DNA of 64,000 bases from an uncultured Gemmatimonadales bacterium (GTDB taxonomy: Bacteria > Gemmatimonadota > Gemmatimonadetes > Gemmatimonadales > GWC2-71-9): contig CAWCVB010000002.1 in NCBI GenBank assembly GCA_963798915.1, positions 448,001 to 512,000 on the forward strand. Direction: 5' to 3'. The stretch's first letter is position 1; each line of letters begins with the position of its first letter. Below, one piece after another: positions 57,739-64,000 of this stretch. Both the position numbers and the translations under genes were made by a program. Below the pieces are notes generated by a model. It saw only the letters and a program-made list of their open reading frames with translations, was not told where the DNA came from and made no database searches.

Positions 57739-58140
57739 TTACTGCGCGGGTGGGAGCTCGTCAGTCCACTGCTGTGTGAAGCGGTAACGGTACGAGAAGC
57801 CTTCGCTGCTCTCGCGCCACCCCCGGACCAGGATGAGCCGGACCGTCTTACCGGGCTTGATCGTCGGGCCCTTATCCCGCTTGCCACAGATCCCCCCGGC
57901 CAACTTGATGCAATCGTAGATCTCCCACGAGGTGATCGTGATGCTTCGGGCGGGGGATAGGTTCTTGACATAGATGCCCTGTTCACCGCCGGCACCGTCC
58001 TCGGCCGCCCAGAATGCGAGGAACTTCCCCGAGGCAGTGACCGGCGTCAGCACGGTGCTGTCCAAGGTCGGCACCCCTTGTCCGGCGACCAGGCGGGCTG
58101 TGGAGACCGCGACTGCGATGGCGAGCGGCAGTGCGCGCAT
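57739..58140 (-). CDS. Secreted hypothetical cassette protein
   Basis: MRALPLAIAVAVSTARLVAG...; located between attC-like sites. Confidence 0.7.
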   Translation of the reverse strand: MRALPLAIAVAVSTARLVAGQGVPTLDSTVLTPVTASGKFLAFWAAEDGAGGEQGIYVKNLSPARSITITSWEIYDCIKLAGGICGKRDKGPTIKPGKTVRLILVRGWRESSEGFSYRYRFTQQWTDELPPAQ

Positions 58141-58233
58141 GCGGGGATGGCATCTGGGCATCGATCCAGGCCTTTCCAGTGTGAGACCACCCGCCATGGG
58201 CACGCAAGGAGCCATGGCGAGTTTTCTTGTTGC

Positions 58234-58367
58234 CGCTGATGACCGGCGCTTCAGCGGCGGGCCCTGTACCCGGCGCCAAACAATGTTCCGCTTCAGCCGC
58301 AGGGACACCAGTAGAGGCGGGACCCACGGCCGGCGAGTGGCCCGTCCGCTGCGAGCGCGGGTGAGAC
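58234..58367 (-). repeat. Degenerate attC site
   Basis: GTCTCAC-CCGCGCTCGCAGCGGACGGGCC...GGCCCGCCGCTGAAGCGC-CGGTC-ATCAGCG: arms pair with bulged bases, both core boxes mutated. Confidence 0.65.
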
Positions 58368-59188
58368 GGTCACTTGATGCGCACTGCGCAGAAATAGGCC
58401 AGTGTCGTCGGCACAACAGCGCCCCGGTATACCAGCCGCGAAAGCCGCGAGTCGTGGCCTCGATCACATCGTACGACTCGCCGTCCTGTCCCAAGACGCC
58501 TGTGATCGGTGCCGTCTCGGGAGCAGACGTGCCCAGGGAGCTGAGTCGACCTCGAATGACGATACCGCGCGTGAAGACACCGTCGTTAGCGGCCATTCTT
58601 CTTGACTCTGCAGGCGTGGCGCGCCGTACCTCCAGCCGATATCGTGTAAGCCGATCCGCCATGCCTGGCATCAGCTGTGCCTCCGTCAGCATGAACTGAC
58701 CCGTGGCGAGCGCAACCGGTACAGGAGTGCTGGATGTGGGTGGGATGTATAGTACGCCTGACTAGGCACCCCCGCCAAAGGCGCGCTGCGCGATGTTGGC
58801 TGTATCCCACTCGGCGTGCCACGATATTACTGGTTCCGAGTCCACCGGAGTGCATGCCCGCGGGACCTGAATGCCGCCGGCCGACTCTCGGGCGCTGCTC
58901 AGCGTCAGGTAGACCGTACAGGCCACTGTCAAAAAGAGACGATAGCTCGGCATCGAGTACCCATGTGAACGGTCTACCGCCAGGCGCTTCAGCTGCGGGG
59001 CGGCGGCTGCAGCGTGATTGAGTTTACCCAAAGAGGCCGTGGCCGCCGACAGCTGAAAGCGATTCCATCGTGGCCAATGCCCCAGGCGGGCGCACCGCAA
59101 GTACCGGAGATACGACTGCAGTCGACCCCGCGCCGTCGACAATCGAGTGAGCAGCTGAGCAGGTACACACCCGATGCTCCCTTGCGCT

Positions 59189-59932
59189 TTAGCGGGGCGG
59201 AGTCCAGATACGCGGGTTAGGCGGCAGTTCGTACCTTGCAGTACCGAACCTGCGCTCGAGGCTCTCTATGTGCTCAACATCAGTTAATCTGCTGATGGCG
59301 AGGCGAGCTGTCTCCAACCTGCCGACGCAAAACTGCATGCGATTGAGCGACATGACCGCCACGGTCTGTTCGCGTAGATAATCTATGAGTCCGGAGATGT
59401 GGAACACGCCCTGTGGCATCGGTGTCTTGAACTCCGCGTCTCCAGAAAAAACGACGACTGATCTGACCGCGTCGGGCGGTAGGAAGTCGAGACGGGCGTG
59501 TACCGCCTGAGCATGCCGGTTGTTCTGAATGAGCGGGTTCTGGAACCTGAACTTGTACCCAAACAGCAGTTGCGTCCATTTCGTGTCCCTCGCATCGGCA
59601 AAGATCCAACCGCGATAGTGCTTGGTCTCGATGACGAACACACCGAATAGCGACACGAGGACGTGGTCGATCTGGGTTGTGCCTTTTCCCCACTGAAGGG
59701 TGAGGTGGTTCATCAGGTGGTAGCCGGGCAGACTGAAATGTGCCTTCAACACGCTGGCAACTACCGCCTCGCCACGATTCTGGTACGTGCTGTTACGGCG
59801 TGCACGAAAGCGCCAGATGCCAAAGCCAGCAATAGCCGCGCCGAGGACAAAGAGTAGGGTTCGGTGGTCTTGAAGCCAGTCTAAGAGCAGTGTCGACAGG
59901 CGAGCACCTATCTCTTCGAGTAGTGATGTGAC
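59189..59932 (-). CDS. NERD nuclease-domain cassette protein with N-terminal TM; no canonical start for the N-terminal part
   Basis: QNRGEAVV; TQIDHVLVS; GVFVIETKHY; FQNPLIQN; 3' end runs into an attC arm. Confidence 0.8.
   Translation of the reverse strand, partial: VTSLLEEIGARLSTLLLDWLQDHRTLLFVLGAAIAGFGIWRFRARRNSTYQNRGEAVVASVLKAHFSLPGYHLMNHLTLQWGKGTTQIDHVLVSLFGVFVIETKHYRGWIFADARDTKWTQLLFGYKFRFQNPLIQNNRHAQAVHARLDFLPPDAVRSVVVFSGDAEFKTPMPQGVFHISGLIDYLREQTVAVMSLNRMQFCVGRLETARLAISRLTDVEHIESLERRFGTARYELPPNPRIWTPPR
59190..59222 (-). repeat. attC 5' arm (partner arm decayed)
   Basis: GCCTAAC-CCGCGTATCTGGACTCC at the end of the NERD ORF. Confidence 0.55.
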
Positions 59933-59970
59933 CGCGAGCCGCTATGGGAGGGCCTCGCGACCCTTCGGCA

Positions 59971-60069
59971 GTATAACGAAACGCAAATCGGCTGCGGGGC
60001 GGCGGCCGCAGCGGGATCGACTTTACCAGCGGAGGCCGCCGTCCCGGCTGCTGTATTTGCCTGTTAGAC
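59971..60069 (-). repeat. Integron attC site
   Basis: GTCTAAC-AG-GCAAATACAGCAGCCGGGACGGCGGCC...GGCCGCCGCCCCGCAGCCGATTTGC-GTTTC-GTTATAC. Confidence 0.9.
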
Positions 60070-60119
60070 AGCGTGTCAGTGCGCCATGGCCACCTAGCTC
60101 GCCACGAGCAAGGGAGCCA

Positions 60120-60899
60120 TCATGCACCGTACCGCTCCGCACTGAAACGCCTCCAATGTGTCCCTGTCCAGCGGATGCCAGTTGTATTCGACGTTGAGAC
60201 GAGCCACGCACCCGTGAGTGGCGATGGTAGCGTCGGAGCCGCTGGTGGCAACGCAGCTAGGTCGCCGTCCAAATACGATTGGACCGACCACGGCGCTCCA
60301 GCATAGTCAACGATCACGAAAGCCTGGCAATCAGCTGCGCCCGACCGCGCTAGCTTCGCAATGACGTCAGCCCGTTGCGGGGCGCTGAGAAATGCAGTGA
60401 TCCACTCTGGGATGGCTACTCCTTCGGTATCAACAGGGCCGCCTATGCCCTCCAAGGTCATGTGAACCTTGCCCTCGCCATCTACCCGGAAGCAGCTGAT
60501 GAACGTGATGCCATCACGATCGAGCACGGAGAAGAGCTCCGGGTTGGACCGATTCAGACGCCAGTCCACGTGGACCGCTGACAGCACGCCTTCATGTTCG
60601 CAGCCCTGAAGAATCGCCTCGAGACTTGGAGCAAGCCCCTTCATCTTGGCGCCCGGCTTCAGAATGACAGTCCAATCGCCCCGCAACGCTAGGGTCAGAG
60701 GGCCCCGCGCGGGTCCGATGTTCCAGGTCTCGGTCCGGACACCATCAACCGCGCCGACACATTCTATCGCAATGGCCGGGGAATCAACCGGGCCGATGCG
60801 GAGATCGTACATCGACGGCTGGGAGTTATCGTCGTGGACCACCACAGACTCTCGCAACTCGTTTTGGACGATGCTCTGCGCCCATGATTCGACGCTCAT
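60120..60899 (-). CDS. Hypothetical cassette protein, possible PD-(D/E)XK fold
   Basis: MYDLRI...AIECV; single ORF between attC sites. Confidence 0.7.
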   Translation of the reverse strand: MSVESWAQSIVQNELRESVVVHDDNSQPSMYDLRIGPVDSPAIAIECVGAVDGVRTETWNIGPARGPLTLALRGDWTVILKPGAKMKGLAPSLEAILQGCEHEGVLSAVHVDWRLNRSNPELFSVLDRDGITFISCFRVDGEGKVHMTLEGIGGPVDTEGVAIPEWITAFLSAPQRADVIAKLARSGAADCQAFVIVDYAGAPWSVQSYLDGDLAALPPAAPTLPSPLTGAWLVSTSNTTGIRWTGTHWRRFSAERYGA

Positions 60900-60931
60900 T
60901 CGGAATTTCACTCCGATGCCCGCGACCCGCT

Positions 60932-61052
60932 GCCTAACGGATTGCAAATCAGCTGCAAACGACCTGAGACAACTTATGGTCCTTTGTGGCCACTGGGAGC
61001 GTCTCTTGCCGCGGCGCTTAGGCCTCTACCGCGTTTGTCGGCTGCATTTGCG
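60932..61052 (-). repeat. attC site, 3' part (interrupted by the IS; 5' part at 62622-62631)
   Basis: GCAAATGCAGCCGACAAACG...CGTTTGCAGCTGATTTGC-AATCC-GTTAGGC. Confidence 0.88.
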
Positions 61053-61469
61053 CCTCTGAAAGTGCGGCTGTCAATGGGTGTACGTGCCCCTCGGACGGCC
61101 GAGCCGCCCTTGCGCTGCACCCACCGAATATGCCCACAGCTCCCTCAGATCCAAGCGCGGCACGAAGCCGGCTTCACGCGCCTCTACGGACGCCATGGTC
61201 CAGGAGCATCATGCGAAGGAGGTGGCCCATTCGGGTTACCGGGGGCACTGCCGACTACGCGCCTCTGAAAGTGCGGCTGTCAATGGGTGTACGTGCCCCT
61301 CGGACGGCCGAGCCGCCCTTGCGCTGCACCCACCGACTATGCCCACAGCTCCCTCAGATCCAAGCGCGGCACGAAGCCGGCTTCACGCGCCTCTACGGAC
61401 GCCATGGTCCAGGAGCATCATGCGAAGGAGGTGGCCCATTCGGGTTACCGGGGGCACTGCCGACTACGC
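61052..61469 (-). repeat. Direct tandem duplication (2 x 209 bp) of the IS 3' non-coding end; candidate seekRNA/bridge RNA
   Basis: 61052-61260 equals 61261-61469 except A61128 vs C61337. Confidence 0.93.
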
Positions 61470-62621
61470 AGCGGATCCCAGCGTATGCGCCGGGCGCACC
61501 TCCAGCTTGTCGTGCTGACGGAGCCACTGCTCGTAGCCCCATCCTTCCTGCCAACACCAGTACAGGTAGCAGCTCAGCTTCCGGGCCGCCGCCACCGTCG
61601 CCTTGGCCTTGCCCTTGGCTCGGAGGAGCCGTTGATACTGCTCGCCCACCGGGCCGGGCGCCAACTTCAGGCTCTGGACGATCTCGATCAGAATCCACTT
61701 GAGCCACGGACTGCCCACGCGACCCACCCCACCGTGCGTCGTCTTGCCACCGGAGCTCTGCGTGCTCGGCACCAGCCCCGCATAGGCCGCCAGCTCGTGG
61801 CTGCTCCGGAACCGCCGGATATCGCCCAGCTCCGCCAGCAGCAGCGCCGCGCCGAAGGGGCCGATGCCCGGCCAGGTCTGGAGCAACTGGGCCACGGGAT
61901 CGCCCTGCACCAGCTGCAGCACGCGCCGATCGAGACGCTTGATGCGAAGATCGAGCTGATCGACCAGCTCAAGCAGCAGGTCCACCTGGAGCCGCCCCAG
62001 CTCCGAAAGTGGCACCGTCGCCAGCCACGTCCGTCCCGCCTTGCCGTACAGGTCCGTCACGTCGGTCCGACGGTTCTCGCTCGTCAGGTGCCCGTGAATC
62101 CGATTCTTCAAGCTGGTCCGCAGGCGAACCAGGTAGGCGCGCCCCCGCAACAACTTGCGGTGCGCCCGCACCTCGGGACTCGGCACCCACACCACCGGGA
62201 GCAGGTTCGCACGTAGCAGGTCCGCCAGCTTGCGGGCATCGATCGGATCGGTCTTGGCCCGCGCCTGCCAGATCACCTTCACCTGAGACGGATGCGCGGC
62301 CACCGCGGCCATCCCCGTCGCGCTGAGCTGGTCATGCAGCCAGGCCCAGTACAGCGTCGCCTCCATCGCCACCGTCACCGGCCCGCCGAGTCCGCGGAGC
62401 CAGGCGATCACCTCCGCGGCGTCCGCCGGCAACCGGCGGTGTTCCGCCACCACGGCGCCGCCCGCATCCAGCGCACAGGCCGTGATGTAACGCTTGTGCA
62501 GATCCAACCCGACCCAGATCATCGCTGTCTCCTTGAGGGGCACTCAAGGAAGGTGCTACGCGAATCACCGGCCCACGAGGGGGCGGAGCGGTGGCCGCGC
62601 AGCGCCGCACTCTCATAAGGT
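61053..62621 (-). mobile_element. IS1111-type (IS110 family) element inserted in an attC site
   Basis: Subterminal IRs TGAGAGTGCGGC (62615-62604) / GCCGCACTTTCA (61068-61057); CG on both flanks; DEDD transposase; 3' non-coding region. Confidence 0.92.
61464..62522 (-). CDS. IS110-family DEDD transposase/recombinase
   Basis: VGLDLHK; MEAT; KTDPIDA; PGIGP; YAGLVPSTQSSGG; AARKL; AGGAG SD. Confidence 0.96.
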   Translation of the reverse strand: MIWVGLDLHKRYITACALDAGGAVVAEHRRLPADAAEVIAWLRGLGGPVTVAMEATLYWAWLHDQLSATGMAAVAAHPSQVKVIWQARAKTDPIDARKLADLLRANLLPVVWVPSPEVRAHRKLLRGRAYLVRLRTSLKNRIHGHLTSENRRTDVTDLYGKAGRTWLATVPLSELGRLQVDLLLELVDQLDLRIKRLDRRVLQLVQGDPVAQLLQTWPGIGPFGAALLLAELGDIRRFRSSHELAAYAGLVPSTQSSGGKTTHGGVGRVGSPWLKWILIEIVQSLKLAPGPVGEQYQRLLRAKGKAKATVAAARKLSCYLYWCWQEGWGYEQWLRQHDKLEVRPAHTLGSAA

Positions 62622-62637
62622 CGGGTTAGACGGCATT

Positions 62638-63261
62638 CTAGTCTTGCTCGAGTTGCCTCGACACTTTAGCGGTCCAAATGCTGTCTTCGTGCGCTGCCAA
62701 TGCCGTGTCTGGTTGATCGGCACTACGGAGCCGCTCTACTGCGGCAGCAGCGATCGCTGCTGCTTCGGACTCCTTGCAAGCGTCTCGCACGCCATACGCA
62801 TTTGCTCGAGGGGACCGTGCAATCCCATTGACAATGTCGATGGCGTCAGAGAAAGCGTGTGCCCGGCCGCGCAATGTGTCGCCTGTCCAGGCACCGCGCA
62901 CTTCCATTCCCTCGCTGAGCATGGCGGGGCGTAAGAGCAGCAAAGAGTCCGGTGTCGTGGCAAGCCAAAGCCACGCACGGTCATATTCTGGGGCCGGCGA
63001 TGACGCTTCTGCCTTCGGCTCGTCAGGAACGAACTGGATGACCCGCCAGCCGTGCCTGCCAGCAAAAGTGGAGAGCCAGGAGTCGATGGCGCTCGTCATA
63101 TTCAGGCGGCGGGAGGATCGCCAGATGTCGCCCGGCGGCGAAGGTGTCCAAGTTCCGACGCCGAGCGCGAGGCATCGCATGGCTTTCGATGTCCGAGCGG
63201 CCGACGGTGGTATTGCTGCCACGATGACGACACAGGCGCTGAACAAGATCTTACCGTTCAT
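62638..63261 (-). CDS. Secreted hypothetical cassette protein
   Basis: Starts 16 nt after attC GTTAGAC; stop 6 nt before the next GTCTAAC. Confidence 0.75.
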   Translation of the reverse strand: MNGKILFSACVVIVAAIPPSAARTSKAMRCLALGVGTWTPSPPGDIWRSSRRLNMTSAIDSWLSTFAGRHGWRVIQFVPDEPKAEASSPAPEYDRAWLWLATTPDSLLLLRPAMLSEGMEVRGAWTGDTLRGRAHAFSDAIDIVNGIARSPRANAYGVRDACKESEAAAIAAAAVERLRSADQPDTALAAHEDSIWTAKVSRQLEQD

Positions 63262-63277
63262 TGATCTCTCGAATGTC

Positions 63278-63376
63278 GTCTAACGAAAAGCAAATCAGCT
63301 GCGGGGCGGCGGCTGCAGCGTCATCGATGTCTCCAGCGGAGGCCGCCGGCCCCGCTGCTGCATTTGCCTGTTAGGC
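63278..63376 (-). repeat. Integron attC site
   Basis: GCCTAAC-AG-GCAAATGCAGCAGCGGGGCCGGCGGCC...GCCGCCGCCCCGCAGCTGATTTGC-TTTTC-GTTAGAC; close paralog of 59971-60069. Confidence 0.92.
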
Positions 63377-63385
63377 GGCATCAAA

Positions 63386-63886
63386 TCAGTAGCCCACCCA
63401 CTCTCCGACGTCCCGGGTGAGAACGCCGAGTGTGTCCAGGAGTACGGCTTCCTCGGGCGTGACTCGAAGCACGCCTTCCTGCTCGTGCGAGATGATGGCT
63501 AGCATGAGTTCCCCGTCACGCCATACAATCGGATCCTCCAGCCATCCACGCTGCATGTCCAGCTCATAGGTGAACAAGTGGTCGGGGCCGAAGGCGCGAA
63601 GTCTAGCAACGGCCTCCGCAGTCAATGTCCACACATGCACGTCGTCGCCACGATCGGAGGTAGTAGGGTTGGCCACGACTCGACGACGCTGAACACCACG
63701 GGACCACGGTGCCAGCGCAGCTTCGAACGCATCGCACGCGAGCGCTGGTGCATTCTCGATGGCGACCCTATCAACGGAAAACTCGTTTGCGCCGCGCGCG
63801 AAGCACCAGTCGAGCAACTGCCATGCTTGCTCGGCGTCGAAATCGGCTTTGAATAGATGTCGAGTGATCAGTTGCTGCTCGTGCAT
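63386..63886 (-). CDS. Hypothetical cassette protein
   Basis: MHEQQLI...WLEDPIVWRDGELMLAIISHEQEG; stop 9 nt before attC. Confidence 0.75.
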   Translation of the reverse strand: MHEQQLITRHLFKADFDAEQAWQLLDWCFARGANEFSVDRVAIENAPALACDAFEAALAPWSRGVQRRRVVANPTTSDRGDDVHVWTLTAEAVARLRAFGPDHLFTYELDMQRGWLEDPIVWRDGELMLAIISHEQEGVLRVTPEEAVLLDTLGVLTRDVGEWVGY

Positions 63887-64000
63887 CGTATGCCGCCTTG
63901 TATCTCTGAATCTGAGTTTCGCTGTAGCTTTTGAATAGGGTGGTAACCCGTTGCGCCTTTGGGCTCCGAGCCCGTTCGTTAGCCTGGGTGCCACCCGTCG

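Follow-up and report, generated by a model that had tools for sequence, protein, structure and literature searches.

The window analyzed here is a 64,000-nucleotide stretch of DNA from an uncultured Gemmatimonadales bacterium (assembly GCA_963798915.1, contig CAWCVB010000002.1, positions 448,001 to 512,000 of the forward strand), taken from a metagenome-assembled genome that is 84.8% complete and comprises 17 contigs. The minus strand of the window end holds an integron cassette array, in which reading frames are each followed by an attC site with a GYCTAAC 5′ end and a GTTAGRC 3′ end; one of the cassette frames encodes a NERD domain and three others have no family match in Pfam. One attC of the array is split by an insertion sequence, also on the minus strand, which is an IS1111-type element and which probably carries its own guide RNA for attC. 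The element, the two halves of the attC that it separates and the duplicated unit at its non-coding end are as follows (coordinates are those of the window).

61053 to 62623, minus strand: whole insertion sequence with its duplicated non-coding region, bounded by CG at the left end and by the outer copy of the right end, AGAGG; relatives align to it end to end with a single non-coding region
62624 to 62631, minus strand: left flank, the R″ end of the split attC, GTCTAAC plus a variable base (C), read from the sequence; TAAC stands at −5 to −2 in 50 of 54 distinct left flanks of relatives
60934 to 61052, minus strand: right flank, the remainder of the split attC, from CG-CAAATGCAGC to the R′ core GTTAGGC, read from the sequence (family D5)
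61261 to 61469, minus strand: copy 1 of a 209-nt unit, GCGTAG to AGAGGC, read from the sequence
61052 to 61260, minus strand: copy 2 of the 209-nt unit, which keeps UAACCCG (61238-61232) and AGAGGCG (61185-61179)

The left junction (62631-62614, minus strand) reads GTCTAACC-CG-ACCTTATG, with the first base of the element at 62623, in agreement with the TAACC plus CG given for it in a preliminary description of this DNA. The right junction (61057-61044, minus strand) reads TTCAGAGG-CG-CAAATGC, with the final G of the element at 61053. The same description had the CAAAT sequence of this junction right and its position wrong, as it ended the element at 61261. Because the 209-nt non-coding end is tandemly duplicated, the true right end is at 61053, and at 61261 the right end abuts the second copy of the non-coding region. 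In its single-copy form the element would span 62623-61262 (1,362 bp). Excision of the element together with one CG yields the spacing of the two intact neighboring attC sites at 63376-63278 and ∼60072-59971, as had been proposed. This genome contains no second full copy of the element.

The transposase gene and the ends of the element place it in the IS1111 group.

61464 to 62522, minus strand: transposase gene, an open reading frame of 352 amino acids from ATG (a GTG 21 nt upstream would give 359 amino acids)
62604 to 62615, minus strand: left arm of the subterminal inverted repeat; across 36 distinct pairs of ends, 326 of 432 positions agree with the right arm read in reverse complement
61266 to 61277, minus strand: subterminal inverted repeat, right arm belonging to copy 1 (copy 2 has its own at 61057-61068)

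The protein has the DEDD transposase domain and the C-terminal Transposase_20 domain of the IS110/IS1111 superfamily (PF01548, 2.7e-22; PF02371, 3.1e-21), and its residues 3-327 match the NCBIfam model NF033542, "IS110 family RNA-guided transposase," with 260.3 bits against a cut-off of 140. Residues D7, E54, D92 and D95 are invariant in the 12 sequences compared and would be the DEDD residues. IS1111 elements are distinguished by a longer non-coding region downstream of the transposase gene and by the C-terminal motif GL-P----S(t)G (both from section 6 of PMC11187229), and by subterminal inverted repeats of 7-17 bp (PMC11208160). The present element has ∼200 nt past the stop codon versus ∼100 nt ahead of the start, the sequence GLVPSTQSSG in its translation, and 12-bp repeat arms, set in by 8 nt at the left end and by 4 nt at the right. 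Both arms change jointly in relatives; at position 15, for example, the pairs are T/T in 8, C/C in 13, A/A in 8 and G/G in 2. The transposase also gives a weak, sub-threshold match over residues 133-262 to NF052498, "TIGR-Tas system RNA-guided endonuclease" (44.7 bits, cut-off 100).

Relatives were collected for comparison of their non-coding regions and insertion sites. A scan of species-representative genomes returned 28 loci with 59-86% protein identity, among which metagenome-assembled genomes of Gemmatimonadota are by far the commonest title; single metagenome-assembled genomes of Burkholderiales, Phycisphaerales, Pseudonocardiaceae and Acidobacteria also occur among the titled loci. A metagenome scan added 79 further loci. 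In the plasmid collection all 5,000 best-scoring protein records were below 60% identity, the best 30 listed reaching at most 41.6%, and a DNA search of the same collection gave no match. The non-coding regions were aligned as 70 distinct sequences (alignment A3), and a tree of 72 rows was built from transposase DNA with the guide region excluded and three loci (L099, L117 and L118) left out.

The alignment of non-coding regions with their insertion sites, which the preliminary description had suggested, revealed covariation on the left side of the target.

61441 to 61447, minus strand: left-target guide plus core, UAACCCG; identified by covariation with the flanks and the transposase tree

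In the relatives, a UAAC-N-CG motif stands just ahead of an invariant GGGCC. Of 60 distinct cases, 52 have the same variable base in this motif and in the left flank (A in 11, C in 31, G in 7, T in 3). The TAAC that precedes the variable base in the flanks is nearly constant, the exceptions being two flanks with GAAC or CAAC and two doubtful end calls. On the transposase tree the guide base changes at least 11 times, and in phylogenetically independent pairs the flank either follows the guide or stays, with no pair running in the opposite direction. Specifically, the contrast of A with non-A gave 8 independent pairs, of which 6.1 agreed in direction and none was opposed (median p 0.03), and the contrast of C with non-C gave 7 independent pairs, 5.3 in the same direction. 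By these sequence comparisons, UAACCCG at 61447-61441 is the true left-target guide plus core, the role first assigned to it. A second TAACCCG noted in a downstream attC arm was located at 59219-59213.

The guide for the right side of the target was found inside the transposase reading frame.

61481 to 61490, minus strand: right-target guide GCGCAUACGC, codons Ala-His-Thr; complementary to the right-flank top strand

It was traced by a blind search for 5-mers common to each right flank and its own element, which pointed, in antisense, to the extreme 5′ edge of the initial alignment. There, ∼10 nt between a conserved GUGCGCCCG and UGGG are the reverse complement of the right flank from the second core base onward. 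The match is 11 of 11 in L046, L053 and L088, 10 of 10 in L025, and 10 of 11 in L024 and L059. Over 70 distinct pairs the mean is 6.67 of 9, compared to 5.27 ± 0.13 for 200 shuffled pairings (maximum 5.64), an excess of ∼10 SDs; the shuffled baseline is high because all targets are attC sites. The guide lies 15 to 24 nt upstream of the transposase stop codon. Its codons vary freely, giving 48 different C-terminal tails of the form EVRP-x-(Q/H)-x-(L/M)-G, and the NF033542 profile ends at residue 327 of 352. Since the covarying stretch lies within the reading frame, at 61490-61481, the TGGCG originally put forward as target-right guide is not the right guide.

Several relatives depart from the common pattern. 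In L065, L078 and L092 the right junction has one extra base (AGAGG/C-AGCG or C-GGCG), and the right guide would fit one position further in. The transposase genes of L013, L017, L018 and L020 are broken by in-frame stops or frameshifts (1, 1, 8 and 4 stops, respectively). L013 and L020 still fit their flanks, with the left guide base right and right-guide matches of 9 of 11 and 8 of 11; L017 fits as well once a shorter guide register is allowed (right guide 8 of 9), and L018 is without a right flank.

The two target guides face each other across a predicted internal loop framed by covarying helices.

61492 to 61503, minus strand: helix P0, 5′ strand GGAGGUG-c-GCCC, within the transposase frame; helix 1, compensatory changes at 3 of 11 pairs
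61427 to 61437, minus strand: helix P0, 3′ strand GGGC-CACCUCC; helix 1, 99.6% paired
61449 to 61480, minus strand: hairpin P1, spanning the transposase stop TAG (61466-61464); helices 2-4, 98.6%, 77.1% and 92.6% paired
61396 to 61411, minus strand: hairpin P3, directly 5′ of AGAGGCG; helix 6, 98.3% paired
61362 to 61383, minus strand: hairpin P4, directly 3′ of AGAGGCG-NNU; helices 7 and 8, 73.1% and 89.6% (inner part) paired

P0, P1, P3 and P4 are kept, and changed on both sides, across the 70 distinct sequences. In P3, pair 136/157 is UA in 38 and GC in 32, and pair 137/156 is AU in 31, GC in 22 and CG in 14; P4 shows both-sided changes at 4 of 8 pairs. For all helices together, 91.8% of cells are paired versus 81.2% in shuffles, and the covariation score is 0.299 compared to 0.116 in shuffles (reached by 0 of 500) and 0.04-0.07 with the pairing partners slid. 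Between P0 and P1 is an internal loop of ∼11 × 11 nt, with the right guide as its 5′ strand and G-UAACCCG-AAU as its 3′ strand. The 80-nt domain that contains them (61504-61425) folds alone to the same shape (−42.2 kcal/mol, z −2.81). In the preliminary description this loop was closed by CGG/CCG and TGGGCCA/TGGACCA stems, which give way to two other covarying helices, and the whole region was enclosed by a GTGCCCC/GGGGCAC stem. The latter is paired in 52.6% of cells versus 53.0% in shuffles, a value equaled by 336 of 500 shuffles. Two assignments of our own were also dropped: the RNAalifold hairpin CGAAUGG/CCUUCG in favor of P0, which shows compensatory changes, and a reading of CACCUCC as an anti-Shine-Dalgarno mimic after its partner GGAGGUG was identified.

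A second motif, downstream of the target loop, is a candidate for the donor side.

61388 to 61394, minus strand: candidate left-donor guide plus core, AGAGGCG, identical to the terminal 5 nt at the right end followed by CG

This motif stands between P3 and P4 and is invariant in the 70 aligned sequences. Its position and its identity with the right end plus CG are as the preliminary description had them, and are consistent with the donor-left role given to it there; it probably reads the donor (circle) junction. The GTCG nominated as donor-right guide occurs in copy 1 only, and copy 2 and the relatives shown have TTCG. Each right end is preceded, at a distance of 16 nt, by TTGACA (61071-61076 and 61280-61285 on the minus strand), which the closest relatives share. 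Joining of the ends may make this sequence the −35 box of a promoter. No convincing −10 box at the proper distance was seen in the left end, and no scan of joined ends was made.

The junctions of relatives define which core bases are shared between element and target. The left junction has CG in 76 of 76 relatives. The right junction, available in 69, has CG in 27, AG in 16, TG in 13, GG in 7, CA in 4, TT in 1 and TC in 1. As the left CG is constant and the first base on the right is variable, the element would bring its own C to the left junction and the first base of the target would stay at the right, so that only the G is shared. Thus, the CG core proposed earlier holds for this copy, and across relatives only its G is general. 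Where the right-guide base facing the first core position is A, it pairs with T in 13 of 14 cases; where it is U, it faces A in 15 and C in 29. Beyond the core, a crude gapped test on the 61 distinct right flanks that are 130 nt or longer detected an attC-like inverted repeat followed by GTTR in 28, compared to 4.0 in shuffles; the ungapped version found it in 16 of 61.

The array also contains what appears to be an unoccupied target.

59207 to 59219, minus strand: empty site TAACCCG-CGTATC, the best whole-genome match to the target predicted by both guides

This site at 59219, two cassettes downstream of the element, is the sole match in the genome with one mismatch to the predicted target. 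In addition, an element 90-95% similar to this one, found in two runs from one other study and differing by one base in the right guide, has its right end joined to CGCGTA-TCTGGACTCC, which is the same attC type as the empty site. Both observations agree with the target that the guides predict.

Combining the anatomy of the element, the covariation of both target guides with their flanks and the helices documented here, we propose that this is an IS1111-type element whose DEDD transposase works with a guide of the seekRNA/bridge RNA kind and which used it to insert into an integron attC. We assign this reading a probability of roughly 85%. Its two guides are complementary to both strands of the target and meet at the crossover, the defining property of seekRNA and bridge RNA recombinases. 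The target-binding RNA would be the 80-nt domain, in which P0 closes the internal loop and P1 stands at its center. The 5′ strand of the loop, encoded by the last transposase codons, would pair with the top-strand DNA to the right of the crossover, in the attC L″ arm. The 3′ strand, UAAC-N-CG, would pair with bottom-strand DNA left of the crossover, made up of the R″ core TAAC, the variable base and the core. Recombination would occur at the CG that is retained at the left junction, and AGAGGCG between P3 and P4 would probably read the donor junction. We infer that the RNA is produced and is bound by the transposase, and likewise the donor-guide role and the chemistry of strand exchange. In principle this is the attC-programmed, RNA-guided IS1111 recombinase in a poorly sampled lineage that the preliminary description envisaged; its loop architecture, right-target guide, donor-right guide, enclosing stem and boundary did not stand.

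The matches between guides and flanks might instead reflect shared ancestry or chance, with the protein alone picking the target, for example by recognizing folded attC. We consider this very improbable. The attC consensus is common to all targets, so that shuffled pairings already reach 5.27 of 9, and TAAC, being invariant in guide and target, cannot covary. Against it stand the variable left base, which follows the flank in most distinct cases and in independent tree pairs with none opposite, and the excess of right-guide matches over those same shuffles. Moreover, covarying helices frame the loop that holds both guides, and related elements have been shown experimentally to need such an RNA, according to the portions of PMC11187229 that treat them.

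Several observations do weigh against the proposed RNA-guided mechanism. The right guide of this copy fits its own occupied site at only 6 of 11 positions, and the left guide disagrees with the flank in 8 of 60 cases, two of which are doubtful left-end calls. A guide C at core position 1 disagrees with the target in a lineage whose right flanks start with TG. On the donor side, AGAGGCG never varies, and its candidate role is read from its identity with the right end plus CG. No right-donor guide was found, either among 5-mer matches or by eye beside P3, P4 and P5, where there is only the subterminal inverted repeat. The would-be closing helix of the donor loop, P5 (GCUCC/GGAGC), is weak, with 80.8% pairing and few changes. 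Furthermore, an Rfam scan of 58000-64000 returned nothing at E values up to 1, and among the sequencing runs searched none had more than 9% of sampled words from this DNA.

The tandem duplication at the right end of the element has features that suggest an origin by self-targeting.

61255 to 61266, minus strand: tandem joint AGAGG-CG-CGTAG, which reads as a normal right junction

The two copies of the unit differ at one base (G at 61337 versus T at 61128). Copy 2 begins in the P1 loop and so has neither the P0 5′ strand, nor the right-target guide, nor the P1 5′ arm; it therefore cannot form the target loop. Indeed, its stretch equivalent to the 80-nt domain gives −16.6 kcal/mol and z −0.10. 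One boundary of the duplication is the right end of the element itself, and the other is one of 2 of 1,355 element positions with at least five core-proximal bases matching the right guide. The remaining such position is a second CGCGTAG in the left non-coding end (62555-62562, minus strand). It is about an even bet that the tandem copy goes back to recombination of another copy of the element into the resident one, at its stop-codon region, followed by homologous deletion between the two transposase genes. In such a course of events a circle copy would insert at the stop-codon region, which the right guide of the RNA matches, and the two transposase genes would then recombine to leave gene, non-coding region, non-coding region. 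Two observations speak against self-targeting: in the left half of the internal pseudo-target only 2 of 5 bases fit TAACC, and at the joint a C stands in place of the T of the present copy 1, with C also found there in L020, L053 and L055.

That poor fit of the left half would suit replication slippage or illegitimate recombination at a 2-nt microhomology, with the element's own recombinase uninvolved, and GC is common to both parental sequences at the joint. Duplication is also absent from all 67 distinct full-length non-coding regions of the relatives. We nevertheless regard slippage as unlikely, as it leaves to coincidence that one boundary falls on the element terminus, that the other is among the rare positions matched by the right guide, and that the joint AGAGG-CG-CGTA is the cognate right junction seen in other runs. 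Separately, in L032 (2700-2760) the 3′ part of the non-coding region carries a 17-nt unit, GGTCAGTCCCCTGACCC, three times in tandem.

A further explanation, that the duplication is an assembly artefact of this incomplete, metagenome-assembled genome, seems to us quite unlikely. The single-base difference between the copies is what strain variants would show, and in four other runs, which contain relatives but are uninformative for this genome, no contig crosses the joint. An assembler needs reads with the joint words (the right end followed by GCGTAGTCGG), however, and a single-copy element supplies none; the contig also extends for hundreds of kilobases on both sides.

Other mobile elements and arrays lie nearby or elsewhere in this genome. 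A second, unrelated IS110-family element, 25% identical to the present transposase, lies at the window end (∼63990-64000 and beyond; G000 C2:511990-513045, plus strand), with another copy at G000 C7:111010-112060. The two copies have the same neighboring sequences, GTTCGTTAGCC to the left and TGCTAACG to the right, and the element lies antisense to cassettes, between attC-like sites. A 49-nt hairpin element running from GGCTAAC to GTTACC (63930-63978, minus strand) adjoins the left end of this second element and is present twice upstream of its C7 copy (G000 C7:110880-111010). C7 also carries a larger cassette array (G000 C7:77000-119900, minus strand), in which several attC ends read TAACCCGCGCTTG. 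At the end of that array is a partial integron-integrase match (C7:119614-119865; 125 bits, cut-off 265) in a 106-amino-acid open frame. No complete integron integrase was found in this 84.8%-complete genome, so that the array in the window may lack one.

It is possible, though on present evidence doubtful, that this lineage evolved attC targeting apart from the ISPa21/ISPst6/ISKpn4 clade, or flipped its orientation, with half of its target loop placed in the reading frame, its transposase and guide transcribed by cassette read-through, and its tandem region left as the fossil of an insertion at its own stop codon. An orientation flip would be possible because the CG core is palindromic. Were this so, the sense orientation would let read-through from the cassette array transcribe both transposase and guide. 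With half of the target loop in the reading frame, any change of target through the right guide also replaces three to four amino acids at the end of the protein. A guide can overlap the recombinase reading frame, and it would be overlooked by anyone who annotates or engineers IS1111 elements solely from their "non-coding end." The relatives would amount to a natural retargeting series for an RNA-guided recombinase, with ∼70 distinct guide/target pairs from uncultured bacteria. The series points to the positions that are read (five left bases, the core and ∼9-10 right bases) and to the mismatches tolerated in nature. In Gemmatimonadota of soil and sediment they would form a second class of attC-seeking elements, opposite in orientation, and such elements can split a cassette from its own recombination site.

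RNA-guided attC targeting by IS1111 elements has already been published, so that the principle is not new. The preliminary description was correct in treating both attC-targeting IS1111 elements and RNA-guided IS110 recombination as known: for ISKpn4, ISPst6 and ISPa25, which target attC, Siddiquee et al. (2024, PMC11187229) describe seekRNAs together with their matches to the target. A literature search joining bridge RNA with attC gave nothing beyond Durrant et al. (2024). With ISKpn4, ISPst6 and ISPa25 the present element shares a DEDD transposase, a long non-coding region downstream of its gene, and a target at the R″/L″ end of attC. We assume a particular assignment of R″ and L″ within the printed ISKpn4 target. 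On this assignment, that target, as it appears in the excerpt of PMC13604230 concerned, is the reverse complement of the R″/L″ end, with the crossover at the CG where the spacer meets L″. IS1111 RNAs have the top-strand match 5′ of the bottom-strand match, and the short seekRNA of ISKpn4 is 82 nt, as given in the seekRNA passages of PMC11187229; the 80-nt domain described here is similar in length and has the same order, the top-strand match first. Unlike these three elements, the present one has a left guide for the R″ core itself, and its lineage is distant (again at most 41.6% among the best 30 plasmid matches listed). Furthermore, the published IS1111 RNAs are said, in the same passages of PMC11187229, to map downstream of the transposase gene, whereas here the coding sequence itself contains the right guide and one strand of P0.

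The IS1111-attC subgroup of Tetu and Holmes (2008), as summarized in the part of PMC3001079 devoted to it, comprises transposases that form a monophyletic clade of ISPa21 and ISPst6, and the discussion there places its members antisense to cassette transcription. By contrast, the transposase gene of the present element and the cassette frames are all on the minus strand; TAAC lies to the left of the element here and in 50 of 54 distinct relatives, so that the transposase gene runs with the cassettes. The orientation is thus the opposite of that in the subgroup, with the same attC end used at CG.

With the IS621 bridge RNA (Durrant et al., 2024, PMC11208160) the element has in common guide pairs that would read target and donor strands around a 2-nt core, and internal loops framed by helices. 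The RNA lies in the right end here, not the left, and the guide order is reversed. IS1111 members carry the RNA in the right end, with donor-binding bases in a multi-loop (PMC11208160), and the position of AGAGGCG between P3 and P4 fits that placement. Also in contrast to IS621, the donor loop here is only a candidate, and the first core position is unmatched from donor to target in many insertions. In the retargeting of ISEc11/ISXne4 outlined in section 10 of PMC11187229, as here, relatives keep the stems while guide bases change with the target. Here the target has shifted in numerous small increments among attC variants rather than in a single leap to an unrelated site, and each right-guide change also alters the transposase tail. 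Finally, group IIC-attC introns, as portrayed in the pertinent part of PMC3001079, are likewise mobile and aimed at the 5′ end of attC through base pairing by their own RNA. Those introns consist of a ribozyme and a reverse transcriptase, a protein and an RNA unrelated to those described here, and they lie antisense to the cassettes.

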